This document shows positions 4,449 to 28,167 of a stretch of 32,656 bases of DNA, piece by piece. Position 1 is the first letter of the stretch. Each line of letters begins with the position of its first letter. A program made the translations under genes and the position numbers. Location: the NCBI GenBank assembly GCA_016193565.1, contig JACPRY010000012.1, positions 1-32,656 of the forward strand. The letters run 5' to 3'. The notes beneath the pieces were generated by a model. It had not been told where the DNA came from, did not search any database, and saw only the letters and a list, made by a program, of their open reading frames with translations. Origin of the DNA: Armatimonadota bacterium. Lineage in GTDB: Bacteria; Sysuimicrobiota; Sysuimicrobiia; Sysuimicrobiales; Kaftiobacteriaceae.

Positions 4449-5477
4449 ATGCTCGATCTGATTGCCCGATTCCCGCAAATGTGCGTGGAGGCGTGGGACC
4501 TGGGCTGGGCCACCCGGGTGCCTACCACGCGGCCGAACGCCATCGTTGCGATGGGGATGGGGGGTTCGGGGATCGGCGGCGACCTGCTGAAATCCGTGCT
4601 GTTCGACGACGACGCGCCACCGGTGGCGTCGGTCAAAGAATACCGGGCGCCGTCGTTTGCGGGTCGCGGCGCGCTCGCCTTCGCCTGCAGCTATTCCGGC
4701 AACACCGAGGAAACGCTGGCCGCGTACCAGGAGGCCCGCCGCAGGGGTGCGGCCTGTGTCGCGGTCACGTCGGGCGGGGAGTTGCTCCGTCTGGCGAACG
4801 ACCGCGGGGACCCGGCCGTGGTCGTGCCGTCCGGCCTGCCGCCGCGCGCGGCGCTCCCGTACCTGTTCATCCCAATGCTGGCCGTGCTCGGACGCGCCGG
4901 TATTATCGGATCGTACGCGGAAGGGTTGCGTGAAGCGGTCCAGGTGCTGGGCGACATCGTTGCGTCCGAATCCCCCGACCGGACGCCGGGAACCACCCGC
5001 GCCGTCGCGGCGCGCCTAGTGGGCCGCATCCCCGTGATCTACAGCGCGGCGCCGTTCCTGGAGCCGGCGGCGGAGCGCTGGAAGGATCAGTTCAACGAGA
5101 ACAGCAAAACGTTTGCGGTGTGGAACACCTTTCCCGAATTGAACCATAACGAGACGGTGGGGTGGGGACTGGACGACGCCCTCGCCCGCATCATTCACGT
5201 CATCATCCTGCGTGATGCCGCCGAGGACGCGCGACTGAGCGCGCGCGTGACCATCACGAAGGACCTGGCATTCCGTCGCGCAGGCGGCCTGGACGAGGTG
5301 CGCGCGCAGGGACGGGGGAAACTGGCCAGGCTGCTGTCCACGGTCCTCATCGGGGATTTTGTGAGCTGGTACCTCGCGACGCTGCGCGGAGTGGATCCAA
5401 CGCCTGTGGAGGTCATCGAGGAACTAAAGAGAAGACTGGCCGGGAGCGCGGGAGCGCGGAAGCCCGGGAGCGCGTAG
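4449..5477 (+). CDS. bifunctional phosphoglucose/phosphomannose isomerase (SIS domain, archaeal-type PGI/PMI)
   Basis: MLDLIARFPQMCVEAWDLGW... matches the PGI/PMI family N-terminal region, with two SIS-like halves. The in-frame upstream sequence encodes ...EHDPSG directly before the ATG after a TAG at 4383 (see findings). Confidence 0.8.
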   Translation: MLDLIARFPQMCVEAWDLGWATRVPTTRPNAIVAMGMGGSGIGGDLLKSVLFDDDAPPVASVKEYRAPSFAGRGALAFACSYSGNTEETLAAYQEARRRGAACVAVTSGGELLRLANDRGDPAVVVPSGLPPRAALPYLFIPMLAVLGRAGIIGSYAEGLREAVQVLGDIVASESPDRTPGTTRAVAARLVGRIPVIYSAAPFLEPAAERWKDQFNENSKTFAVWNTFPELNHNETVGWGLDDALARIIHVIILRDAAEDARLSARVTITKDLAFRRAGGLDEVRAQGRGKLARLLSTVLIGDFVSWYLATLRGVDPTPVEVIEELKRRLAGSAGARKPGSA

Positions 5478-6591: not shown

Positions 6592-6596
6592 CTAAC

Positions 6597-6668
6597 GACA
6601 ACGCGAAGACGCGACAACGCGACAACGCGAACCGAGTTGTCCGGTTGTCCCGTTGTCGCGTTGTCCAG
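6597..6668. repeat. palindromic tandem-octamer element: (GACAACGC)x4-5 followed by its inverse (GTTGTCNC)x4
   Basis: Read directly in the sequence. It fills the entire gap between the convergent stop codons at 6589-6591 and 6669-6671. Could fold into a roughly 30-bp imperfect hairpin and act as a bidirectional terminator. Confidence 0.7.
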
Positions 6669-7538
6669 TTACCGTGTTTCTTTCGTCAGGTCGGCCAGGG
6701 GTTGTAGCAGCTTCGTAAATTCCAGCGGGAAGATAAACTTCGTGCTGGCGCCCGCGCCCAGGACTTTGAGCGCCTCGAGGTACTGCAGCGTGAGCGTTTT
6801 GCCGTCGATGTTCTTGGCGACCGCGAAGATCTTGTCGAGGGCGAGCGAGAAGCCCTCGGCGCGCAAGATCGCGGCCTGACGGGCGCCCTCAGCCTCCAGG
6901 ATCGCGGCCTGCTTCGCGCCTTCCGCCACGGTCACCGCCGCCTCGCGCTTTCCGAGCGCCTCTGTCACGACGGCGCGCCGGCTGCGCTCGGCGGACATCT
7001 GCCGGGTCATCGCTTCCTGCACCTCGCGCGGGGGCAGGATCTCGCGGATCTCGACGGTGGTGACCTTGACGCCCCACCGTTCGGTGACCTCGTCCATTTT
7101 CGCCCGCAGGACCTGGTTGATCTGCTCTCGCTTGGCCAGCACGTCGTCCAGGCTAATATCGCCGACCACCGCGCGCAGCGTCGTCGTGGCAATCCCTCTT
7201 GCGGAGCCCGCAAAATCCACCACCTGGATGACAGAAAACTCGGGATTGAAGACTTTGAAATAGATCAGGAAATCGATATTGATCGGCGCATTGTCCTTCG
7301 TGATGCACGTTTGGGAAGGGATCTCCAGGAAGAACTCACGCAGGTCCACCCAGACCGCTTTGTCGATGACCGGCCACAGGAACACGAGTCCGGGCCCCTT
7401 CTTGCCGATCGACTTCCCCAAACGGAACACGACGAGTCGCTGATACTCGCGCACGATCTTGACCGCCGACGAGAGGATGAAGATGCCGACGATGACGGCG
7501 GCGATGAGAAAGGTCAGCTGGGTCAGAAACGAAGGCAT
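6669..7538 (-). CDS. SPFH/band-7 (stomatin/prohibitin-like) membrane protein
   Basis: N-terminal TM helix followed by an SPFH core (KIVREYQRLVVFRLGK..., ...VEIREILPP...), then an Ala/Glu-rich coiled-coil tail. SD GGAGGTG upstream. Confidence 0.85.
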   Translation of the reverse strand: MPSFLTQLTFLIAAVIVGIFILSSAVKIVREYQRLVVFRLGKSIGKKGPGLVFLWPVIDKAVWVDLREFFLEIPSQTCITKDNAPINIDFLIYFKVFNPEFSVIQVVDFAGSARGIATTTLRAVVGDISLDDVLAKREQINQVLRAKMDEVTERWGVKVTTVEIREILPPREVQEAMTRQMSAERSRRAVVTEALGKREAAVTVAEGAKQAAILEAEGARQAAILRAEGFSLALDKIFAVAKNIDGKTLTLQYLEALKVLGAGASTKFIFPLEFTKLLQPLADLTKETR

Positions 7539-7619: not shown

Positions 7620-8987
7620 TCACCCGGAGGCCTGCTGCAAGGCAGCGAGGTCGATGCGGCGCTGGACGAAGTTCGTGTAGACTTCACCCCGGCGGAAGAA
7701 GGCGTTGTCAAGCACCATCAGATGGAAGGAGATGGTCGTCGGCACGCCGGCGATCTCGAACTCCTGGAGCGCGCGGCGCATCCGCGCGATCGCTTCCGTC
7801 CGCGTCGTTCCCCACGCGATGAGTTTCGCCAGCAGTGAGTCGTAGTGGGGCGGGATCGCGTACCCCGCATACGCATGGGTGTCGACACGGATGCCCGGAC
7901 CGCCCGGCGGGATGAACTGCGTGAGCCGGCCGGGCCCCGGCCGGAAGTCGTGCCGCGGATCTTCGGCGTTGATGCGGCACTCGATCGCATGCCCGCGGAA
8001 CTCGACCTCGCCCTGGTTGACCCTGAGCCGCTCGCCCGCCGCGGTCTCAATCTGCGCCTTCACGATGTCGAGCCCCGTGGTCATCTCCGTGATCGGGTGC
8101 TCGACCTGGATCCGCGTGTTCATCTCCATGAAGTAGAAGTGGCCGTCGCGGTCCACGAGGAACTCCACCGTGCCCGCGCCGGTGTAGTTGATGGAGTGGG
8201 CGGCCTTGACTGCTGCTTTCCCGAGCGCCCCGATGAACCGGTCGCGTACCCCCGGCGGCGGGGCTTCTTCCAGCAGTTTCTGATGGCGGCGCTGGATGGA
8301 GCAATCCCGCGCGCCGAGGTGAATGGTGTTGCCGTGCTTGTCGGCGAGGATCTGGACCTCGATGTGGCGCGGTTCCTCGACGTACTTCTCGATGTAGATC
8401 TCGTTGTTCCCGAACGCGGCCTCCGCCTCCGCCTGCGCGGTCTGGATGGCGCGGCGCAGATCCTCCCGCGTGTGGACGAGCCGCATCCCTCTCCCGCCGC
8501 CCCCTGCCGACGCCTTGACGATGAGCGGGAAGCCGATGTGGCGGGAGATCTCGAGCGCCTCGTTCTCCCCGCGCACCGGGCCTTCGCTGCCCGGAATGAC
8601 CGGCACGCCGGCCTCGCGCATCTGCTCGCGCGCCTGCGATTTGTTGCCCATCGCCGCGATCGCCTGCGGCGAGGGACCGACGAACGTAATCTTCACGTCC
8701 TGGCAAATCTCGGAGAAGTGCGGGTTCTCGGACAGGAACCCGTAGCCGGGATGGATCGCGTCGACGCCAAGCAGCTCGGCCGTGCTCATGATGTTGGGGA
8801 TGTTGAGGTAGGAGTCGGCCGGCGGGGGCGGGCCGATGCAGAACGCTTCATCGGCCATCCGCACATGGAGCGACTGGCGGTCGGCCTCCGAGTAGACGGC
8901 CACGGTGCGAATGCCGAGCTCGCGGCATGCGCGGATCACACGAACCGCGATTTCGCCCCGATTCGCGATCAACAGTTTTCTAAACAT
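7620..8987 (-). CDS. accC: acetyl-CoA carboxylase biotin carboxylase subunit
   Basis: [26 protein letters not shown]..., ATP-grasp domain, 455 aa, strongly conserved. No SD before the ATG. Confidence 0.95.
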
Positions 8988-8995
8988 GGGACGGA

Positions 8996-9049
8996 TCTAT
9001 TGAATCTGTTGAATCTATTGAATCAACGGGTCCAATAGATTCAACAGAT
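8996..9049. repeat. AT-rich palindrome of 9-mer repeats: (TCTNTTGAA)x3 + inverted (TCAAYAGAT)x2
   Basis: Occupies the accB-accC intergenic gap, directly abutting the accC start codon. Much lower GC than the surroundings. Confidence 0.7.
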
Positions 9050-9555
9050 TACCTGTCAGTGACGGTGGGATCGATGAGGAAGAGAGGTTGTCCGAACTCA
9101 ACAGGCGCGGCGTTTTCGACGAGCACCCTGACGACGCGGCCGCGCATCTCGCTCTGAATCTCGTTGAACAGTTTCATCGCTTCGATAATGCACACCGTCT
9201 GGCCGGGCTCCACGACGTCGCCCTCCGACACGAACGGAGGCGCGTCGGGGTTCGGCGCGCGGAAGAAGGTCCCAACCATCGGTGCTGAGATGGGCGTGAG
9301 GTGGTCGACGGCGGCGGCAGGAACCGGCGCAGTCGGCTGCGGGGCCGGCACCGTCATGTGCAGCGTCTGTGTGGGCGCTTCTGTCCCTGGATTCCCCGCC
9401 GTCGCCGTGGCACGCAAGGCGCCCGCCACCTTCTTCACCGAGACCTTGAGCGTGGGCGACTCCACTTCGAGCTCGGCGATGTCGTCCGATTCGCTGAGGA
9501 GCCGGATCACCGCTCGGATCTGGTCGAGGTCAAATTTCTGATCGCTCACATGCAT
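9049..9555 (-). CDS. accB: acetyl-CoA carboxylase biotin carboxyl carrier protein
   Basis: Biotinyl-lysine motif EAMKLFNEI, Pro/Ala linker, C-terminal lipoyl-like fold. A GTG start 6 nt downstream (M-SDQKF...) is better spaced from the GAGGAG SD. Confidence 0.9.
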   Translation of the reverse strand: MHVSDQKFDLDQIRAVIRLLSESDDIAELEVESPTLKVSVKKVAGALRATATAGNPGTEAPTQTLHMTVPAPQPTAPVPAAAVDHLTPISAPMVGTFFRAPNPDAPPFVSEGDVVEPGQTVCIIEAMKLFNEIQSEMRGRVVRVLVENAAPVEFGQPLFLIDPTVTDR

Positions 9556-11509: not shown

Positions 11510-11515
11510 ATTATA
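11510..11515 (-). promoter_or_regulatory. perfect TATAAT -10 hexamer (minus strand), about 40 nt upstream of the accD start
   Basis: Reverse complement of ATTATA at 11510-11515. Flanks the heptamer array on its left side. Confidence 0.45.
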
Positions 11516-11531
11516 ACGTAGAAATGGCCTG

Positions 11532-11559
11532 CCGTTACCGTTCCCCGTTCCCGGTTCCC
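11532..11559. repeat. tandem heptamer array (CGTTCCC-like x4; GGGAACN on the other strand)
   Basis: ccgttac/cgttccc/cgttccc/ggttccc. Sits centrally between the divergent accD and htrA genes, each side flanked by a perfect TATAAT. Confidence 0.75.
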
Positions 11560-11572
11560 AGGTCGCGTAGTC

Positions 11573-11578
11573 TATAAT
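11573..11578 (+). promoter_or_regulatory. perfect TATAAT -10 hexamer for htrA
   Basis: 13 nt after the last heptamer. AAGGAGG SD and ATG follow 27 nt downstream. Confidence 0.5.
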
Positions 11579-12735: not shown

Positions 12736-12766
12736 GTTGAAGGTTGAATGTTGAAGGTTGAAGGTT
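12736..12766. repeat. tandem heptamer array (GTTGAAG/GTTGAAT x4)
   Basis: Starts 3 nt after the htrA stop and overlaps the argS start codon (ATG 12748). Confidence 0.7.
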
Positions 12767-14523
12767 ACACATTCGATCGAGCAAAGCGCGAGGCTGTGGA
12801 GGCGGTCCAGGCCGCGCTCGGCGAGCCCGCTGAACTGACCACCGCACTGCCTCCCGCCGAAGTCGACGCCGATCTCGCCATTCCGTGCTTCCCGCTCGCC
12901 GCACAGCGTCGCAAGTCGCCGCCTGAGATCGCCGGCGAGCTGGCCCGATCCGTGCGGCCCGGTCCGCTGCTGGCCGGTGCGCAGGCCGCCGGCGGCTATC
13001 TCAACTTCACGCTGGCACGCCCCGCCTTTGCCGCAGGCGTGATGGCCGATCTCATCCGCGGCGGCGACCGCTACGGCACCAGCGAGGTCGGGGCCGGGCG
13101 CACGGTCGTCATCGATTACTCGGCGCCCAATGTGGCGCGACAGATGTCCGTGGGGCACCTGCGCTCGACGATCATCGGCGCCGCGCTGGTCAACCTGCAC
13201 CGTCACACCGGGTACCGGCCGGTTGGGGACAACCACCTCGGGGACTGGGGAACGCAGTTCGGCACGCTGCTGTACGCGTACGCGCACTGGCTGGACCGGG
13301 AGGCGTACGAGCGGGATCCCATCGCAGAACTGCTGCGGTTATACGTCATGTTTGACGAGGAGGCGCGAAAGGATCCGGCGCTCCGGGAACGAGCGCGCGA
13401 ATGGTCGTTGAAACTGGAGCGCGGCGACCCGGAGGCCCGGACGCTGTGGCAGGAGTTCGTCCGCCACAGCCTGGTGGAGTTCCAGAAGACCTACGACCTG
13501 CTCGAGGTACGGTTCGACCACACGTTGGGCGAAAGCTTCTACGAGGACAAGATGGAGGAAGTGATCTCACAGGCCCGGCAGAACGGGGTGGCCACCACCG
13601 ACGGCGGGGCAGTGATCATCCGTTTGGACGACGCCGGCATCACGACACCACTCATCTTGCAACGCAGCGATGGGGCGACGCTCTATGCGACGCGAGATCT
13701 GGCCACCGCCGTCTACCGCATCCGAACCTTCCGACCGGCAAAGATTCTGTACGTCGTCGGATCAGACCAGCGTCTGCACTTCCGTCAGCTGTTCGAGGCC
13801 TTGAAGAAGCTCGGCCACGGTGACGTGGAGTACGTGCACGTGGACTTCGGGCTGGTCCGGCTGCCCGAGGGGCGCATGAGCACACGGCGCGGACGCGTCG
13901 TGTTTCTCCAGGAGGTGCTCGAGGAAGCGATCGATCGGGCGCGCGCGCTCGTCGACGAGAAGAACCCCGAACTGCCGGAGGCGGAGCGCCGCGAGGTCGC
14001 CCGCATCGTAGGCGTCGGCGCGATCAAGTACGCCGATCTCTCGCAGAACCGGGTGAAGAACATCGTCTTCGATTGGGACCGCATGCTGGCGCTGGACGGC
14101 GACAGCGCCCCGTACCTGCAGTACACGTACGTGCGGGCGCGGGGCATCATCCGGAAGGGCGGGGACGTTGCGCTCGACGTCCCGTTCGACGGCCGGGCCG
14201 CGGCGTCAGCGCAGGAGTGGGCCCTGATCAAACACCTCGCGCGGTTCCCTGACGCCGTCCATGAGGCGACCCGTGCGTACTACCCGCATGTCGTGGCCAA
14301 CCATCTCTTCCAGCTCGCCCAGCTCTTCCACGCCTTCTACCAGGAGATCCCGGTGCTGCAGGCCGAGGACAACGGTCTTCGCTGGAGCCGCCAGCAGCTG
14401 GTCTGGGGCGTAGCCACCGTCATGCGCACCGGCCTCGGCCTCCTGGGCATTCGCGTCCCGGAGCGCATGTATTCCCGGTTCCCGGTTCCCGGAATCGGTC
14501 ATGGAGCAAAATGCCGGGTATAA
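12748..14523 (+). CDS. argS: arginine--tRNA ligase
   Basis: Class I aaRS with ArgRS add-1 N-domain, HIGH-region variant SAPNVARQMSVGHLRS, DALR anticodon-binding domain. Canonical C-terminus ...ERM is followed by a 17-aa tail translated from the heptamer array. Confidence 0.9.
   Translation: MLKVEGYTFDRAKREAVEAVQAALGEPAELTTALPPAEVDADLAIPCFPLAAQRRKSPPEIAGELARSVRPGPLLAGAQAAGGYLNFTLARPAFAAGVMADLIRGGDRYGTSEVGAGRTVVIDYSAPNVARQMSVGHLRSTIIGAALVNLHRHTGYRPVGDNHLGDWGTQFGTLLYAYAHWLDREAYERDPIAELLRLYVMFDEEARKDPALRERAREWSLKLERGDPEARTLWQEFVRHSLVEFQKTYDLLEVRFDHTLGESFYEDKMEEVISQARQNGVATTDGGAVIIRLDDAGITTPLILQRSDGATLYATRDLATAVYRIRTFRPAKILYVVGSDQRLHFRQLFEALKKLGHGDVEYVHVDFGLVRLPEGRMSTRRGRVVFLQEVLEEAIDRARALVDEKNPELPEAERREVARIVGVGAIKYADLSQNRVKNIVFDWDRMLALDGDSAPYLQYTYVRARGIIRKGGDVALDVPFDGRAAASAQEWALIKHLARFPDAVHEATRAYYPHVVANHLFQLAQLFHAFYQEIPVLQAEDNGLRWSRQQLVWGVATVMRTGLGLLGIRVPERMYSRFPVPGIGHGAKCRV
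14472..14492. repeat. tandem heptamer array (TTCCCGG x3; CCGGGAA on the other strand)
   Basis: Inside the last 17 codons of argS. Confidence 0.75.
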
Positions 14524-18414: not shown

Positions 18415-19473
18415 ATGGGGTCAAAGGCGAGGCTGTTCGGCATCGGCATGCTTTCTGGGATGCTGATGCTTCCGGCACACATCCCTCAGCCGTTGAGTCC
18501 TGGACCCTCCGCAACCCCCTTCCTCCAGGCCGTTCAGACCCAAGCTGCAGTTTCCCAGATCTTCACGACGCTCTTCCACCTCGCTCCGCCTCGGCCTGAG
18601 ACGGCCAGCGCGACGAGTCAGCCTGCGCCATCGCCCACCACCGTCGTCGTCAAGGAAGGGCAGTCGGTCTGGGACATCGCGAACGCCTACGGCGTGTCGG
18701 TGGACTCAATCATCGCCGCGAACGACCTCCGGAATGCGGACCTGATCAAGCCCGGACTGCGCCTCCTAATTCCGAGGGCCGGCGCCGCTCTTCCCGCCCA
18801 GAAGCCGGCCGTCCAGAAGCCCGCGGTCCAGAAGGCCCCGTCGAAGGCCGCATCCCCGTCGAAGACCCAGCCGGCACGGCAACCCCGCCCCGAGTGGATC
18901 GTCGTGCGGCAGGGGCAGACGCTCTCAGAGATTGCCGAAGAACACGGGACATCGGTCAGCGCGTTCGTGAGGGCGAACGGGCTGCGGAGTGCCGAGCTCA
19001 TTCGCGAGGGGCAGCGTCTGGCGATCCCAGGACGGCAAGCCGCCTCGAGACGTCTAACGATCGCCTCGCCGGTTCCGGTGTCCCGGACCCAGGCCGTGGT
19101 CGCGCGGGTGAGCGGGTTCCTGTGGCCGGCACGCGGTGTGCTGACCTCAAGGTTCGGCTGGCGGTGGCGGCAGCATCACGACGGGATTGACATCGCCGCT
19201 CCCCGAGGCGCCCCGATCCACGCCGCGAAGGCCGGGCGCGTCATCTTTGCCGGCTGGTATTACGGCTATGGGCGGGCCATCATCATCGACCACGGCGGCG
19301 GGCTCACGACCCTCTATGGACATGCATCGAAGCTGCTGGCCAGCAACGGTCAGGCGGTGCAGGCGGGCGAACTCATCGCCCGCGTCGGATGCACCGGCCA
19401 CTGCTCCGGCTCGCACCTCCACTTCGAGATCCGCGTTAACGGTAAGGCAGTCAATCCCCTGAAATACCTCTAG
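18415..19473 (+). CDS. LysM (x2) - M23 family metallopeptidase (murein DD-endopeptidase-like)
   Basis: Signal peptide, two LysM domains (VVKEGQSVWDIA...; VVRQGQTLSEIA...), PAVQK x3 linker, M23 motifs HxxxD...HLHFE. Start uncertain (ATG 18415 abuts the SD; ATG 18445 is an alternative). Confidence 0.8.
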   Translation: MGSKARLFGIGMLSGMLMLPAHIPQPLSPGPSATPFLQAVQTQAAVSQIFTTLFHLAPPRPETASATSQPAPSPTTVVVKEGQSVWDIANAYGVSVDSIIAANDLRNADLIKPGLRLLIPRAGAALPAQKPAVQKPAVQKAPSKAASPSKTQPARQPRPEWIVVRQGQTLSEIAEEHGTSVSAFVRANGLRSAELIREGQRLAIPGRQAASRRLTIASPVPVSRTQAVVARVSGFLWPARGVLTSRFGWRWRQHHDGIDIAAPRGAPIHAAKAGRVIFAGWYYGYGRAIIIDHGGGLTTLYGHASKLLASNGQAVQAGELIARVGCTGHCSGSHLHFEIRVNGKAVNPLKYL

Positions 19474-19478
19474 CTGAC

Positions 19479-19506
19479 GGGAACGGGGAACGGCGAACGG
19501 GGAACG
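19479..19506. repeat. tandem heptamer array (GGGAACG x4, one GCGAACG)
   Basis: Begins 6 nt after the M23 stop. Confidence 0.75.
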
Positions 19507-19538
19507 GTACAAGCCTACCCTGGCCGGAGTGACTGTGC

Positions 19539-19830: not shown

Positions 19831-19865
19831 GCTTAGAGAAGTGACTCGTCCGGTGGGGGATTTCG

Positions 19866-20483
19866 ATGAACGACCTTCAAGGTCGGATTGAGGTCATCGT
19901 CGGCAGTATGTTCAGCGGGAAAAGCGAAGAGCTCATTCGGCGCGTGCGCCGCGCCCAGATTGCTCGCCTGCGGGTTCAGGTATTCAAGCCGGCGATCGAC
20001 AGCCGGTCCGGCCGCCAGCAGATCGCCTCCCATAACGGCGCGCGCATTGAAGCCATTCCCATCGCCCACAGCCGGGAGCTCTCGGAACACCTTGACCCCG
20101 ACGCCACCGTGGTGGCGATCGATGAGGTGCAGTTTCTCGACGACGGCATCGTCGGGATCGCGCAGCACCTTGCCGATCGCGGGATTCGCGTGATCGCCGC
20201 TGGCCTCGACATGGATTTCCGCGGCGAGCCGTTTGGCCCGGTGCCGCAGCTGCTGGCGCAGGCAGAGGCGGTCGACAAACTCCAGGCGATCTGCATGGTT
20301 TGCGGCGTGCCGGCCAGCCGGACGCAGCGGATCATCAACGGCCAGCCCGCCCACTATACCGATCCCGTAATCTTCGTTGGCGCTCAAGAAGTGTATGAAG
20401 CACGATGTCGGGAGCATCACGTGGTTCCGGGAAAGCCATCGACCGGGAACTGGGAACGGGGAACGGGGAACCGTCAGAGATGA
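19866..20483 (+). CDS. tdk: thymidine kinase
   Basis: P-loop [11 protein letters not shown], Zn-ribbon CMVCG...CREHH. The last 20 codons are translated from the heptamer array. The stop overlaps the next ATG (ATGA). Confidence 0.9.
20445..20472. repeat. tandem heptamer array (GGGAACN x4) inside the tdk 3' end, with an inverted partner TTCCCGG at 20488-20494
   Basis: gggaact/gggaacg/gggaacg/gggaacc. Four G3+ tracts with 3-4 nt loops. Confidence 0.75.
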
Positions 20484-21385
20484 AATATTCCCGGCCAACA
20501 GAGCGCTTACTTATCGGGGGCCAAGCCGTCATCGAAGGGGTCATGATGCGCTCGCCCCGGTGGACGTCGACCGCCGTCCGGCGTCCGACCGGCGAGGTCG
20601 TGACCGCCACCGACCGCGTCGATTCGCTGCTGCTGCGCCATCGGTGGCTGCGGGCGCCGATTGTGCGCGGGGCGATCACGCTGTACGAAGCGCTGGTGAT
20701 CGGCGTGCGCGCGCTGCTGTTCTCGGCGCGCGAAGCGTTGGGGGAAGAGCAGGAACAGTCGCCGGCCGCCATCAGCGTCAGTGTCGCGCTCGGGCTCGCG
20801 CTGGCGATCGGCCTGTTCTTCGTCCTGCCCGCCGCCATGATCAGGCTGCTCGACCAGTATTTCGCCACGGTCTATACGTTGAACATCGCCGAGGGCGCGG
20901 TGCGGGTGTCGATTCTGATCGGCTACATCGCGTTGATCGGACGGCTCAATCACATTCGACGGGTGTTTGCGTATCACGGGGCCGAGCACAAGGCCGTCAA
21001 TGCCTATGAAGGAGGCGCGACGCTCGAGGTCGGGCACGTGCGCCGGTTCAGCCGGTTTCACCCGCGCTGCGGTACGAGCTTCCTGCTCATCGTGATGATC
21101 GTGGCGATCATCGTCTTCTCATTCCTGGGTCGGCCGGGATTGCTGCTACGCATCACAGAACGGGTGCTGCTTATTCCGTTTGTGGCCGGCATCAGTTATG
21201 AGATCATTCGCGCTGGGGCACGCTACCGCTGGTTCCGTCCCCTGGTCGTGCCGGGGATCTGGCTCCAGCGGTTGACCACCCGCGAACCGGATGACATGCA
21301 GCTGGGCGTGGCGATTCACGCCCTCCAAGAGGTCCTTGACCGCGAACGCAATCTGCGACAGGCTGGTGAGGAGGCGGCGGTATAA
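20480..21385 (+). CDS. DUF1385-family membrane protein (YqhQ-like; prfA-associated)
   Basis: [26 protein letters not shown]... [12 protein letters not shown] motif plus TM helices. Start taken at the internal ATG of track ORF 20405. Confidence 0.7.
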
Positions 21386-21396
21386 TAAGCTCTGTC

Positions 21397-22479
21397 ATGA
21401 TCGACCGCGGTGTGATACTCGACAAGCTGGATGCACTCGAGACCCGCTACGAAGCGCTGATGCAAGCGCTGGCCGACCCGGCCATCTTCGCCCAGCCCGA
21501 CCGGTACCAGCAAGTGGCCAAAGAGCGCGCGGATCTCGAGGAGGCGGTTTCCACGTACCGCGAGTACCAGAGGGTCGTGCGCGAGCTCGAGGAGGCGGAG
21601 GCGCTGGCGCAGACCGAGCAGGACCCGGAGCTGCGCGAACTGGCGAAAACCGAGCAGGCGACGCTACGGCAGCGCCGGGATGATCTGGAACTGAGACTGA
21701 AGGATCTCCTGGTGCCGAAGGATCCCTATGCGAACCGCAACATTATCATGGAGATCCGCGCGGGTGCCGGCGGGGACGAAGCCGGGCTATTTGCCGGCGA
21801 CCTGTTCAGGATGTATTCGCGGTTTGCCGAGCGGAACCGGTGGAAGGTAGAGGTCCTCGAGAGCAGCGCCACCGCGCTCGGGGGGTTCAAGGAAATCATC
21901 TTCGGCATTCAAGGGAAGGGTGCATACAGCAGATTGAAGTACGAAAGCGGCGTGCACCGTGTCCAGCGAGTGCCGGAGACTGAGGCGTCGGGCCGCATTC
22001 ATACCTCAACGGCGACGCTCGCCGTCCTGCCGGAAGCCGAAGAGGTCGATCTCAAGATCCGCCCTGACGAGATCGAGATTGAAACCTACCGCGCAGGGGG
22101 TGCCGGAGGGCAGAACGTCAACAAGGTCGAAACGGCGGTGCGCATCCGTCATCTGCCGAGTGGACTCGTCGTGTCCTGTCAGGACGAGCGCTCCCAGCAC
22201 CAGAATCGCGAGAAGGCGATGCGGATCCTGCGGGCCAAACTGCTCGAGCGGGAACTCCAGCGGCAGCAGCAGGAGATCGCGCAGCAGCGGCGCCAGCAGG
22301 TCGGGAGCGGCGACCGCAGCGAGAAGATCCGGACGTACAACTTCCCGCAAAACCGCCTCACCGATCACCGCATCGGGCTATCACTCCACCGGCTGGACGC
22401 CATTCTCGACGGCGACCTCGACGAACTCACCACCGCCCTGGCCGCAGCCGAGGCGAGGGCGCTGGCGGCGGCCATCTGA
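21397..22479 (+). CDS. prfA: peptide chain release factor 1
   Basis: PxT/PET-type recognition region, GGQ motif ([18 protein letters not shown]), 360 aa. Confidence 0.95.
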
Positions 22480-22481
22480 GA

Positions 22482-23426
22482 CCCAATCCCATCACGATAC
22501 GCGAAGCCTATCTGTACGGTTGTGAGCACCTCATCGCTTCGGGCGTACCGGAGCCGGCCATCGAGGCCGAGGTCCTGCTGAGGCACGTCCTGGGCTATGA
22601 TCGGGCGGCGCTGTATACTCGCTGGGACTCTCCGATTGATCCTCCCACGGCCGGGCGCTACCAGCGCCTTTTGGAGATCCGGAGCACGGGGCGGCCCGTT
22701 CCCTACATCATCGGTACGCGGGAGTTTATGAGCCTCCCGTTCGCAGTGGACGAACGGGTGATGATCCCGAGACCCGAAACAGAGATTCTGGTGGAATATC
22801 TGGTGAAGAAGTTCTCAACTACGGAAACGAGGAAACGAGGAAACGAGGGAACGAGTCAAGGCGACGAACGACCAACGACCAACGACGAACATCAGTTGGT
22901 GCTGGTTGATGTCGGGACGGGCAGCGGCTGCATCGCGGTGAGCCTCGCACACTACCTGCCGCAAGCCCGCGTCTATGCGACCGACATCTCGGCCGCGGCG
23001 CTCGAGATCGCCGCGCGAAACGCTCAGCATCACAACGTGGCAGATCGGGTGGTCCTGCTTGAGGGCGATCTCCTGTCCCCCCTTCCGCACCACCTGGACG
23101 GACAGGTGCAGGCCGTAGCCAGTAACCCGCCCTATGTCCCGGTATCACAGGCGCTGGACCTGGCGAGGGAAATTCGCGATTTCGAGCCTGCGGAAGCCGT
23201 GTTTTCGCCGGGCGAAGGAACGGTGATGCACGGCAGGCTGATCGAAGAAGCGCCTCGCTGGCTCTGCGCCGGAGGGATGCTCGCGATGGAGATCGCTGCG
23301 GGCCAGGCTGAGCCTGTGCGCAATCGAGTGGCTCAGGACAACCGGTATGATCGTGTTTGCTCCCTCTCTGATCTTGCTGGAATTGAGCGCGTGGTGGTCG
23401 CATGGCGACGACACGCGACAGGGTAG
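22482..23426 (+). CDS. prmC: release-factor glutamine N5-methyltransferase (PrmC/HemK); start codon uncertain
   Basis: The frame is open from immediately after the prfA stop and encodes the PrmC N-domain (...IREAYLYGCEHL...VLLRHVLGYDRAALY...), then VLVDVGTGSGCIAV and NPPY. There is no ATG/GTG/TTG before the track's internal TTG at 22671. Contains a 20-codon in-frame repeat insertion. Confidence 0.75.
   Translation, partial: PNPITIREAYLYGCEHLIASGVPEPAIEAEVLLRHVLGYDRAALYTRWDSPIDPPTAGRYQRLLEIRSTGRPVPYIIGTREFMSLPFAVDERVMIPRPETEILVEYLVKKFSTTETRKRGNEGTSQGDERPTTNDEHQLVLVDVGTGSGCIAVSLAHYLPQARVYATDISAAALEIAARNAQHHNVADRVVLLEGDLLSPLPHHLDGQVQAVASNPPYVPVSQALDLAREIRDFEPAEAVFSPGEGTVMHGRLIEEAPRWLCAGGMLAMEIAAGQAEPVRNRVAQDNRYDRVCSLSDLAGIERVVVAWRRHATG
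22823..22890. repeat. compound array inside prmC: (GGAAACGA)x4 + GTCAAGGC + (GACNAAC)x4
   Basis: Encodes TETRKRGNEGTSQGDERPTTNDEH between the PrmC N-domain and the methyltransferase GTG motif. Length keeps the reading frame. Confidence 0.75.
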
Positions 23427-26532: not shown

Positions 26533-26540
26533 CATTCGCG

Positions 26541-26572
26541 CGTTCCCCCGTTCCCGCGTTCCTTCGTTCCCG
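26541..26572. repeat. tandem octamer array (CGTTCCCN x4)
   Basis: cgttcccc/cgttcccg/cgttcctt/cgttcccg. Begins 9 nt after the remnant's stop. Confidence 0.75.
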
Positions 26573-26581
26573 CTGTTGTGT

Positions 26582-26638: not shown

Positions 26639-27367
26639 ATGGAACGAGTGAGTCTGGAAGCGAAGCGCCGCGATGGCACGGGAACGAGCAAGGTGCGCAA
26701 GCTCCGCCTGCAGGGGCTCGTCCCGGCGGTCGTGTACGGCCGTGGCCGCGAGCCGGTGCCCGTGGCCGTCGACGGGAAGTCGCTGCGCGCATCGCTGCAC
26801 ACGCATGCCGGCCTGAACGTCCTCATCGACCTGTCCATCGCCGACGGCAGTCGCTCGACGGAAACCGTGATGGTCAGGGAAGTGCAGCGCGGGATGTTCA
26901 GGCGCGAGATCATTCACGTGGATTTCCACACGATCGACCTGACGGAGACACTCGAAGCGCACGTGCGGTTGGTCTTCACCGGCCAGGCGAAGGGCGTCGT
27001 CGACGACGGGGGCGTGTTGGAGATCCACCTCCGCGAAGTCGTTGTCGAGTGTCTGCCGGCACAGATTCCCGAGTCGATTGAGATCGACATCTCAGCGCTG
27101 GGCGTGGGGGACTCGCTGCACGCCAGCGATATCAAGATGCCCGCTGAGGTGACGATGGTCACGTCGGCCGAGGAGGCGATCGCCACAGTCGTCATGCCCA
27201 AGGAGATCGAAGAGGTGGCGCCTGCGGCTGCGGCGGTGCCTGAAGCGGCGGCAGAAGCCGCGGCCCCCGAGGCAGCGGCGCCGGCAGAGGGCAAGCCGGC
27301 CGAGAAGGCTGGTGAGCCTGAGAAGCCCGAGAAACCTGAGAGACCCGAGAAGAAGGAGAAGGGGTAG
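26639..27367 (+). CDS. rplY: 50S ribosomal protein L25 / general stress protein Ctc
   Basis: MERVSLEAKRRDGTGTSKVRKLR...VVYG... L25/Ctc fold. Ala/Pro/Glu/Lys-rich C-terminal tail (PEKPEKPERPEKKEKG). Confidence 0.9.
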   Translation: MERVSLEAKRRDGTGTSKVRKLRLQGLVPAVVYGRGREPVPVAVDGKSLRASLHTHAGLNVLIDLSIADGSRSTETVMVREVQRGMFRREIIHVDFHTIDLTETLEAHVRLVFTGQAKGVVDDGGVLEIHLREVVVECLPAQIPESIEIDISALGVGDSLHASDIKMPAEVTMVTSAEEAIATVVMPKEIEEVAPAAAAVPEAAAEAAAPEAAAPAEGKPAEKAGEPEKPEKPERPEKKEKG

Positions 27368-27518: not shown

Positions 27519-28109
27519 ATGAAACTCATCGTCGGGATGGGCAACCCAGGGCGCCGGTACCGGGGAACGCGCCACAACGTGGGCTGGGAGGTGCTCGAGT
27601 GTCTGGCCCGCCGCCACGACGTGACGATCGATGACGACACGGGCTGGGCTGAGGTCGGACGGGGAACGATCGGTCCCCACCGCGTCGTGCTGGCGCGGCC
27701 GGTGACCTACGTGAACGCGAGCGGCATGGCGGTCCAGGATCTCAAGCGCCGCCACCGCGTACAGGTTGAGGACATCTTCCTGATCGTGGACGATCTCGAT
27801 CTGCCCCTCGGCCGGATGCGGCTGCGGCCGAAGGGAAGCGCCGGCGGGCACAACGGACTGAGATCCGTGATCGAGGCGTTGGGCAGCGCCGAATTTCCGC
27901 GGCTGCGCATCGGGATCGGACGGCCACCGGCGGGGGTCGATGCCGCGGACCACGTCCTCACACGGTTCACCGACGAGGAGCGGCAGGGGCTGGAGGCCGC
28001 CCTGGTCCGCGCGGCGGAAGCCCTCGAGGTCGCGATTACTGAGGGCCTCGATGTCGCGATGAACCGGTTTAACGCGAAAACGAACCTCGGAAACGAGGAA
28101 ACAAGGTAA
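27519..28109 (+). CDS. pth: peptidyl-tRNA hydrolase
   Basis: MKLIVGMGNPG..YRGTRHNVG... The last about 8 codons and the stop lie inside the repeat palindrome. Confidence 0.9.
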   Translation: MKLIVGMGNPGRRYRGTRHNVGWEVLECLARRHDVTIDDDTGWAEVGRGTIGPHRVVLARPVTYVNASGMAVQDLKRRHRVQVEDIFLIVDDLDLPLGRMRLRPKGSAGGHNGLRSVIEALGSAEFPRLRIGIGRPPAGVDAADHVLTRFTDEERQGLEAALVRAAEALEVAITEGLDVAMNRFNAKTNLGNEETR

Positions 28110-28167
28110 CGAGGAAACGAGGCATGGCAGTTACCGGTTTCCTAGTTTCCTCGTTTCCTGGTTTCCG
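28089..28167. repeat. palindromic octamer array: (GGAAACGA-like)x4, 15-nt spacer, (NGTTTCCT)x4
   Basis: ggaaacga/ggaaacaa/ggtaacga/ggaaacga ... ggtttcct/agtttcct/cgtttcct/ggtttccg. Spans the pth stop. Confidence 0.75.

Follow-up and report, generated by a model that had tools for sequence, protein, structure and literature searches.

Several families of short repeats are found both between the genes of bacteria and inside them. The Rickettsia palindromic elements (RPEs) are genome-wide repeats that occupy intergenic DNA and are also inserted in frame in conserved proteins of housekeeping function, at sites that the fold permits (PMC10969869). The TAACTGA repeats are intergenic heptamers of Beggiatoaceae, Cyanobacteria and Bacteroidetes which, when inside open reading frames, lie at the periphery of the protein in orientations constrained by stop codons (PMC4679880). 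Contiguous heptamers are present in Nostoc PCC 7120 (bioRxiv 10.1101/2022.06.06.494920), and proteobacteria harbour the REP, BIME and REPIN elements (PMC3116915). Here we analyze an insert of tandem repeats in prmC, the gene of the release-factor N5-glutamine methyltransferase, in a stretch of 32,656 nucleotides (hereafter the window) from an Armatimonadota bacterium (contig JACPRY010000012.1). The insert is probably a neutral passenger of fast turnover in a permissive loop of the enzyme, most likely without a function of its own, and it draws attention to a family of repeats that occurs densely in an uncultured lineage of soil bacteria, a relative of the 'Bacillati bacterium ANGP1' metagenome-assembled genomes.

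Like the RPEs, the prmC family is located between genes and in frame at a tolerant site of a protein, and it forms a true hairpin in the prmC genes of two relatives (loci L045 and L004). RPEs, however, measure about 100-150 bp and conserve both family sequence and peptide, whereas the modules described here are of about 33 nt, each made of four units of 7-9 nt; at most a unit of 6-8 nt is shared, the peptides are unconstrained and the window copy is not palindromic. Among the hallmarks of RPEs and MITEs, palindromy is lacking in the window and present only in L045 and L004, and a family conserved over its full length was not found. The arrays resemble the heptamer repeats in having tandem 7-nt units in two to six copies, mostly intergenic near promoters or start codons and sometimes running over the ends of open reading frames. 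They differ in comprising several unit types (7, 8 and 9 nt), in belonging to a high-GC uncultured soil lineage, in forming inverted pairs with long hairpins in 60% of cases, and in that the prmC array occupies a loop within a catalytic domain, an exception to the peripheral rule; no TAACTGA or CCCCAGT unit was found among them. Cyanobacterial STRR sequences were reportedly described by Mazel et al. in 1990. As in REP families, ~30-nt modules are abundant, inverted hairpin pairs commonly lie at the 3' ends of genes and the families are genome specific; REP arms, by contrast, are imperfect palindromes with a RAYT recognition motif and are extragenic by definition, whereas the arrays here are tandem repeats, and no RAYT was seen in the 32-kb window. 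In the phase-variable simple-sequence contingency loci of Haemophilus and Neisseria, units whose length is not a multiple of three are placed in the coding region in strain-variable number. The prmC arrays differ from these in having four copies, a housekeeping target and all alleles in frame, with frame changes compensated internally and the gene not switched off. The prmC insert family is thus a member of neither the RPEs nor the heptamer repeats, since no element sequence is conserved, the window copy is not palindromic, and both units and lineage are different. As a protein feature, the insert is an ordinary loop extension of PrmC, predicted to be disordered and apparently dispensable.

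Position of the insert in PrmC

The insert consists of two arrays and a short spacer, in a gene that probably begins at the stop codon of prfA:

21397-22479, + strand: prfA (release factor 1, RF1), an open reading frame with syntenic RF-1 Pfam calls in relatives; its TGA overlaps the likely prmC start
22476-23426, + strand: prmC, release-factor N5-glutamine methyltransferase (TIGR03534; fold matches 1nv8 and 2b3t)
22781-22891, + strand: hypervariable segment of 111 nt; the five nearest contigs (L024-L028) have 45 nt in its place, which align poorly
22823-22854, + strand: array A, GGAAACGA three times and GGGAACGA once, 8-nt period, peptide ETRKRGNEGT
22855-22862, + strand: 8-nt spacer between arrays A and B, GTCAAGGC
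22863-22890, + strand: array B, GACGAAC GACCAAC GACCAAC GACGAAC, 7-nt period

The repeat composition of 22823-22890 is exactly that given by the initial annotation, and both arrays are called by Tandem Repeats Finder (TRF), as 8 nt x 4.1 (96% matches) and 7 nt x 4.1 (90%). Array B has an AACGA core in common with array A, and the two are not mutually complementary. The unit GGAAACGA occurs seven times in the window versus 1.09 expected, with seven or more in none of 100 shuffles, and a 16-mer of the double unit, with up to two mismatches, is found eight times versus 0.03 expected; all eight matches fall within 22823-22854 or 28089-28166. In the prmC frame the block reads TETRKRGNEGTSQGDERPTTNDEH (in the wider context ...KKFSTTETRKRGNEGTSQGDERPTTNDEHQLVLVDVGTGSG...), as had been translated before, and the open frame ends at 23426. 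The claim that the length of the insert preserves the frame was right for the insert and wrong for the 68-nt block alone, which is not divisible by three: the frame is kept because the total change in length versus relatives, a net 66 nt, is a multiple of three. Relative to the ~97%-identical sequences the gain is thus 22 codons and not the 20 first proposed.

The insert is regarded as real and not as a product of assembly: its reading frame is uninterrupted, an array of 32 nt is exceeded in length by a sequencing read, and a protein from another sample (P0001) contains SETRKRGN. Contigs of relatives do end at arrays (the end of L024, the start of L026), as would happen if the repeat were an assembly or sequencing artefact, yet with array lengths of 28-32 nt, a preserved frame, a related motif in that independent sample and analogous inserts in NCBI, JGI, ENA and Logan assemblies such an origin is extremely improbable.

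With the equivalog model TIGR03534 the protein scores 241.1 bits, above the curated cut-off of 199.1 bits, and its residues 30-307 cover positions 1-252 of the 253 in the profile, in agreement with assignment of the gene to PrmC. Motif I (DVGTGSG) and motif IV (SNPPYV) are present, and both are invariant in alignment A1. The AlphaFold model (mean predicted local distance difference test score, pLDDT, of 88) comprises an N-terminal helical domain, a β-hairpin linker and a class I methyltransferase fold, and its best fold matches are 1nv8 (T. maritima HemK) and 2b3t (the E. coli PrmC chain of the RF1 complex), with E ~4e-23. The open reading frame is therefore assigned to PrmC, for which methylation of the GGQ glutamine of RF1 and RF2 is predicted; it lies directly downstream of prfA and overlaps it. 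Its start seems to be the CTG at 22476-22478, which overlaps the prfA stop (cTGA), the next candidate being an ATC at 22491; no ATG, GTG or TTG was found in the prmC frame before 22671, where the first one, a TTG, is located well within the N-terminal domain. The CTGA overlap is conserved in L024-L028, L099 and L100, which suggests that translation of PrmC is coupled to that of RF1 through a non-canonical start. The PrmC proteins P0001-P0003, P0014 and P0019 were all truncated by gene callers; for annotation, this means a prmC gene without a canonical start codon and systematically shortened proteins in relatives.

The insert is located upstream of the GxGxG motif, as the initial annotation stated, although not in the interdomain linker, which in the AlphaFold model is the β-hairpin of residues 76-87. 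It lies between the helix of residues 96-110 (ETEILVEYLVKKF) and strand β1 of the catalytic domain (residues 137-142, LVLVDV), and residues 111-130 have pLDDT values of 51-57. In a phmmer search against PDB sequences the match to T. maritima HemK is split at the insert, query residues 18-106 corresponding to 26-114 and 139-284 to 125-261, which leaves about 22 extra residues at this point. The site predicted by the model is hence the αA/β1 loop of the methyltransferase domain, just before GxGxG and probably disordered. In Rossmann-type methyltransferases the ligands bind at the C-terminal ends of the strands. From the fold topology, the αA/β1 loop would face away from the S-adenosylmethionine (SAM)/GGQ pocket.

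Variation of the PrmC loop among relatives

The sequences nearest to the window are five Logan contigs of 2.6-5.4 kb, L024-L028, about 97% identical. Their DNA identity to the window is 96-97% upstream of the site and 91-97% downstream, the BLAST matches break at 22780 and 22892, and the insert is missing, the linker being ILVEFLIENLSAVRQFVVV. Alignment A2 gives the net difference of 66 nt, or 22 codons, which is a replaced segment (111 versus 45 nt) and not a clean insertion; no target-site duplication or conserved flanks were found in this alignment or in the comparison of L099 with L100. Thus, the proposal that alignment of orthologues would reveal a lineage- or strain-specific insert was borne out in so far as presence varies between such close relatives. 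The 73%-identical protein P0001 reads FGTSETRKRGNAEARTDRHVDERE and has the first half of the insert, SETRKRGN, in common with the window. In the genome collection, the best matches are 'Bacillati bacterium ANGP1' MAGs, with 51-58% amino acid identity.

The direction of the change can be approached through a neighbouring gene:

19839-20507: tdk (thymidine kinase; NF003296, 283 bits), between rpmE and a DUF1385 gene

The TGA of tdk overlaps the ATG of the next gene, and its last ~15 residues derive from a GGGAACK array. The gene is missing in the 97%-identical L026 and occupies the same place in many distant clade members (L003, L004, L034, L035, L044 and L047); the gene is therefore ancestral at this site in the clade, and the sister lineage formed by L024-L028 lost it. 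This lineage also lacks the GGGAACG array upstream of rpmE. In view of both absences, the simplest history is that the window keeps an older insert which the sister lineage deleted. The insert is probably ancestral to its subclade, as the SETRKRGN common to P0001 also indicates.

Loop length, counted as the residues from PRPETE to DxGTGSG, is 17-24 in 52 of 53 loci of unrelated bacteria and 41 in the window, the insert being absent from ordinary PrmC proteins. In the clade it amounts to 19, 21, 27, 29, 30, 41, 43, 45, 47 or 50 residues in loci with DNA read and reaches 66 in a relative known as protein only (P0063); many relatives at 53-73% amino acid identity have 8-47 extra residues. Contrary to what had been implied, the insert is hence not peculiar to the window, since related lineages have equally long or longer ones. 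Long linkers of non-repetitive sequence in relatives, which would have spoken against a repeat insertion, were looked for, and the long linkers proved to be repetitive too. Ten insert allele types have DNA read (L002-L005, L029, L037, L045, L099, L101 and the window, with identical copies in further loci), and all ten are tandem arrays of 7-8 nt, among them:

L037: CGGGAACN three times, followed by GGATCCA five times
L045: CGGGCAC four times, followed by GCCCGGA 3.5 times
L029: CCCGGAC 4.6 times
L099: AGCGCGGG four times, 33 nt; its sister L100 has no array
L101: CGCAAGCN four times

In a neighbour-joining tree of PrmC with the linker masked, insert-bearing alleles form two subclades with insert-free lineages between them, and at least four times an insert-free allele falls within a group of insert-bearing ones (window/L025, L099/L100, L003/L034-35 and P0008/P0011). 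Insert-free alleles keep a unit-like seed, GAAACGGG in L100 and GGGAACGGGCC in L034/35, which fits contraction to one unit and local expansion equally well. The αA/β1 loop is considered permissive because an unrelated PrmC of another phylum (L092, Ga0307987_1000082, 32% identity) holds a low-complexity insert, 61 residues rich in EKEP, in the same loop.

Loci L040 and L005 differ by three substitutions in ~4.1 kb outside the PrmC insert, and inside it by deletions of 8 and 7 nt and about six clustered substitutions. Owing to the one 8-nt and one 7-nt unit indel, the segment in the middle of the insert is read in different frames, and the peptide between the indels is TPTPAPRARGGAGERE in one and PHARSAGSGRSTGTRC in the other; a compensated frame change of this kind is seen also between L002 and L003. 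Part of the change between L040 and L005 looks like the import of an L037-type segment. At these two loci the arrays are by far the fastest-changing DNA.

The sense strand of the inserts contains only 0-10% T in 10 of the 10 types. Nine of them are free of stop codons in all three sense frames, the other (L005) having a single stop in an unused frame, and hydrophobic residues account for 0-18% in all three sense frames versus 8-58% in the antisense frames, which also contain occasional stops. The T-poor strand, with almost no stops and no U-centred hydrophobic codons, would therefore always yield a hydrophilic peptide, explaining both the orientation of the inserts and the viability of double slips of 8 + 7 = 15 nt. 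The sequence of the insert peptide appears to be unconstrained. The locus offers a natural example of repeat DNA turned coding: since nearly every sense frame of a T-poor array lacks stops and gives a hydrophilic peptide, compensated frameshifts inside such arrays would be harmless.

A phase-variation switch, in which the change of one 8- or 7-nt unit turns prmC off and a second slip turns it on, modulating release-factor methylation, would agree with unit lengths that are not multiples of three, with single-unit changes between near-identical genomes and with the shifted frames of the window gene, both of which are closed by a stop codon within or ahead of motif I, 8-20 codons beyond the insert. 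It is nonetheless highly improbable, as each array has only four copies, none of the ~38 assembled alleles examined is out of frame, and the target is a housekeeping gene that in close relatives has no array at all. The loop might instead be adaptive, giving an extra contact with RF1/RF2 or the ribosome or serving as a flexible tether. The charged, hydrophilic insert and the occupation of the site in many members of two subclades would fit such a role; a loop with anything from 0 to 47 extra residues, free in sequence even to frame changes, absent from the nearest relatives and of low pLDDT makes it very improbable.

The reading we favour, a neutral passenger, can be outlined as follows. The insert consists of two ~33-nt modules of a clade-wide family, each with about four copies of a 7-9-nt unit, and such inserts come and go between near-identical genomes by gain and loss of units, replacement of segments and compensated frameshifts; a slip of ±8 nt in one array could be rescued by one of ±7 nt in the other. 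Judging from these genomes, the insert seems to be dispensable. Its persistence may have two reasons: the loop is permissive, at the N-terminal edge of β1, away from the SAM/GGQ pocket and predicted to be disordered; and only T-poor orientations would survive a filter of translatability. Several observations weigh against this reading. Neither among the ~30 genes of the window nor in L001, a relative with annotation, does an array lie in mid-gene except at the PrmC loop. This, together with the occupation of the loop in two separate subclades, suggests a hotspot or a benefit and not mere tolerance. Moreover, arrays with a GGRAAC core recur at the 5' side of the insert across lineages of 55% identity, which pure neutrality does not predict unless a GGAACG seed or a sequence-directed process is involved. 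GGAACG corresponds to the KER codons at the end of helix αA and is seen in the insert-free L034 and L035. Either this resident seed or a sequence-directed process could account for the loop being the sole internal site.

Hairpins and the origin of the arrays

Units of the prmC type and of a second type form inverted pairs between genes of the window:

28089-28166, + strand: hairpin at the junction of pth and hppA, with inverted GGAAACGA-type arrays as its arms (28089-28120 and 28137-28166)
6596-6670, no strand assigned: inverted CGACAACG-type arrays, a hairpin between convergent malK-like and SPFH genes (z = -5.4 and -6.1)

The pth/hppA hairpin has a predicted energy of -41 to -46 kcal/mol (z = -4.4 and -6.8) and is built, as the initial annotation held, from the same 8-mer as the prmC insert. 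The pth stop codon (TAA, 28107-28109) is located inside the left arm, where it is made by the variant unit GGTAACGA, and a TATAAT follows 9 nt downstream of the hairpin. A hairpin was considered for the prmC insert of the window and rejected, both strands being without a fold (z = +0.75 and +0.58). In two relatives, however, PrmC inserts of 66 nt are in-frame hairpins with arms of tandem repeats, L045 at 395-485 (-60.5 kcal/mol, z = -8.2) and L004 at 8320-8410 (-51.2 kcal/mol, z = -4.05). Therefore, at least some PrmC inserts are the same kind of object as the intergenic hairpins, and the arm-spacer-arm layout of the window insert, together with its identical net size of 66 nt, is compatible with a remodelled hairpin copy.

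These similarities bear on the possibility that a small mobile palindromic element of RPE or MITE type landed in frame and that the window copy has decayed, its T-rich arm remodelled. Apart from the shared architecture of the L045 and L004 hairpins with those at 6596-6670 and 28089-28166, and the layout and size of the window insert, such an element would be in keeping with the GGRAAC core found in 8 of the 13 TRF arrays in the 32 kb, where other units coexist, with the recurrence of few unit types per genome as in REP and STRR families, and with an equal divergence of units at all lags, which fits the insertion of ready-made modules. The verb 'invades', by which mobility had been attributed to the family, is nevertheless hardly warranted: neither terminal inverted repeats beyond the arrays, nor target-site duplications, nor conserved flanks were found, the copies share a unit of only 6-8 nt with differing periods (7 versus 8), the window insert is unfolded, the seeds in L100 and L034/35 fit local expansion or contraction equally well, and no transposase candidate was seen in the 32-kb window. 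On balance a mobile element is rather unlikely.

The statistics of the whole family offer another view of how arrays arise. A total of 109 arrays was counted in 218 kb of DNA from the clade, 50 with a period of 7 nt, 18 of 8 nt and 36 of 9 nt, with 3.3-5.9 copies and a mean length of 33 nt. The distribution of copy number has its maximum at 3.5-4.5, with 14 arrays at 3.5-4, 10 at 4-4.5 and 4 at 3-3.5. The identity between units at lags of one, two and three periods is 0.84, 0.84 and 0.83, which favours the birth of all ~4 units at once over stepwise duplication of neighbours. Successive doubling (one, two, four units) was not supported, identity at a lag of two periods being no better than at one. 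A conserved core with one variable nucleotide, the signature of a binding site, was not supported either, with 58 mismatches at the top position versus 52 expected.

It is conceivable that ~33-nt arrays of four units are written as whole modules by a clade-specific, sequence-directed process and not by ordinary slippage; candidate writers would be a small system, mobile or of templated synthesis, or one of gene conversion that operates at the boundaries of operons. The copy peak near four with a dip at 3-3.5, the equal divergence at all lags and the few unit families that recur per genome fit this reading, as does the persistence of arrays at orthologous sites while their sequence turns over and the fact that near-identical genomes differ almost only at arrays. 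The prmC insert would then be a seeded or off-target product that by chance is translatable. We regard this reading as unlikely; if true, it would represent a new bacterial mechanism of repeat generation.

Arrays elsewhere in the window and in the clade

Counting arrays with a period of 6-10 nt and 3.5 copies or more, there are 12 in the window and 0-1 in shuffles. Array density is 4-5.7 per 10 kb in the more distant clade loci L001-L005 and about 0.6 per 10 kb in unrelated bacteria; none was found in L047-L051 or in the 2.6-5.4-kb contigs of the close relatives L024-L028. Arrays are mostly located at operon boundaries, often as inverted hairpin pairs: 24 of 40 (60%) have an inverted partner within 130 nt, at seven non-redundant loci. 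Other than in prmC, all window arrays lie in spacers or encode C-terminal tails:

5441-5474, + strand: CGGGAGCG x 4, C-terminal tail of the bifunctional PGI/PMI
8995-9050, no strand assigned: ATCTATTGA x 3.3 with a partial inverted partner, accB/accC spacer
11532-11559, - strand: GGGAACS-type array between the divergent TATAAT boxes 11510-11515 (-) and 11573-11578 (+) of accD and htrA
12736-12766, + strand: GTTGAAG x 4.4, between the htrA stop and the argS start
14472-14492, - strand: CCGGGAA x 3, inside a 17-residue C-terminal extension of ArgS
19479-19507, + strand: GGGAACG x 4, between the stop of an M23 peptidase gene and the extended -10 promoter of rpmE
20445-20471, + strand: GGGAACK x 4, source of the ~15 C-terminal residues of Tdk, with the DUF1385 gene starting shortly downstream
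26535-26573, - strand: GGGAACGN x 4, 8 nt upstream of the TATAAT of ctc (L25)

The tails encoded by arrays extend beyond the family profiles by 17 residues in ArgS (TIGR00456, which normally ends in ...ERM), 10 in PGI/PMI and 15 in Tdk, and one is found also in Pth; the stretches concerned are 14472-14523 (ArgS), 5441-5477 (PGI/PMI) and 28089-28109 (Pth). The 19479-19507 array is missing in the 97%-identical L026, and the same core is present at the orthologous site in L003 and L004. This spacer between the M23 peptidase gene and rpmE keeps an array while its unit changes, from GGGAACG in the window, L003 and L004 to CAGTCNG in L035 and GGGATCA in L101. The same is seen upstream of ctc, in a spacer that retains an array over deep divergence with a changed unit; arrays of a unit related to GGGAACGN are found there in L029 and L003. 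Contigs of close relatives end at or within arrays, L024 at window position 26549 and L026, at its start, at 19478, which suggests that assembly from short reads is interrupted by the arrays or by their heterogeneity in the population. In practice, the arrays would thus interrupt assemblies; they also mislead gene callers, lengthen C-termini and mark the boundaries of operons.

The exact hexamer TATAAT occurs seven times in the window versus 0.8 expected, and an array is located 8-31 nt upstream of six of the seven. The sites are at 11510-11578, 14519, 19539, 21381, 26582 and 28176, with a TGn at rpmE, and a scan near these boxes found no -35 consensus; TATAAT and TGn without that consensus suggest extended -10 promoters. 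The arrays were considered as -35 elements and rejected, given that their spacing to TATAAT varies (8-31 nt), their orientation is inconsistent and the -35 consensus was not found. Oriented motifs of the Chi or KOPS kind were rejected too, both orientations being present within 32 kb. No Rfam family matches the window.

Repressors of the ribbon-helix-helix type bind tandem boxes of 7-8 bp. The arrays could accordingly be cis sites for a clade-specific DNA- or RNA-binding factor, the prmC copy being an intragenic site for the prfA-prmC-sua5 operon. The position of arrays relative to TATAAT, including one between two divergent boxes, and their retention at orthologous intergenic sites over deep divergence would be expected of such sites, and heptamers close to promoters or start codons are proposed regulator sites in Nostoc (10.1101/2022.06.06.494920) and Beggiatoaceae (PMC4679880). 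However, units differ between lineages at one and the same site, several unrelated units coexist per genome, mismatches are not concentrated outside a core, the orientation of arrays with respect to the downstream promoter is inconsistent and the prmC array is dispensable in ~97%-identical relatives. The co-occurrence with TATAAT (rough hypergeometric P ~0.01) is explicable by the presence of both in operon-boundary spacers. A regulatory role of this kind is thus quite improbable.

In the literature searched no description was found of the array family of this ANGP1-related soil lineage, searches for STRR and ANGP1 being largely unproductive. Two further repeats of the window encode protein segments. 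At 27315-27352 (L001 6664-6700; L029 11297-11340), the 9-nt repeat GCCCGAGAA gives an (EKP)n tail of ribosomal protein L25/Ctc; unlike those encoded by the other arrays, this protein sequence is maintained throughout the clade, and the repeat therefore probably represents a selected tail of low complexity and not a member of the array family. The linker of the LysM/M23 peptidase has PAVQK-type repeats, encoded at 18794-18842 by a 15-nt unit in 3.3 copies. Finally, in L101 (2587-2735) GGGATCA x 4 and TGATCCC x 4.6 are inverted with respect to each other and flank the rpmE TATAAT, one being upstream of the promoter and the other in the 5' untranslated region, an arrangement that would fit an operator or a looping role and does not resemble a terminator.

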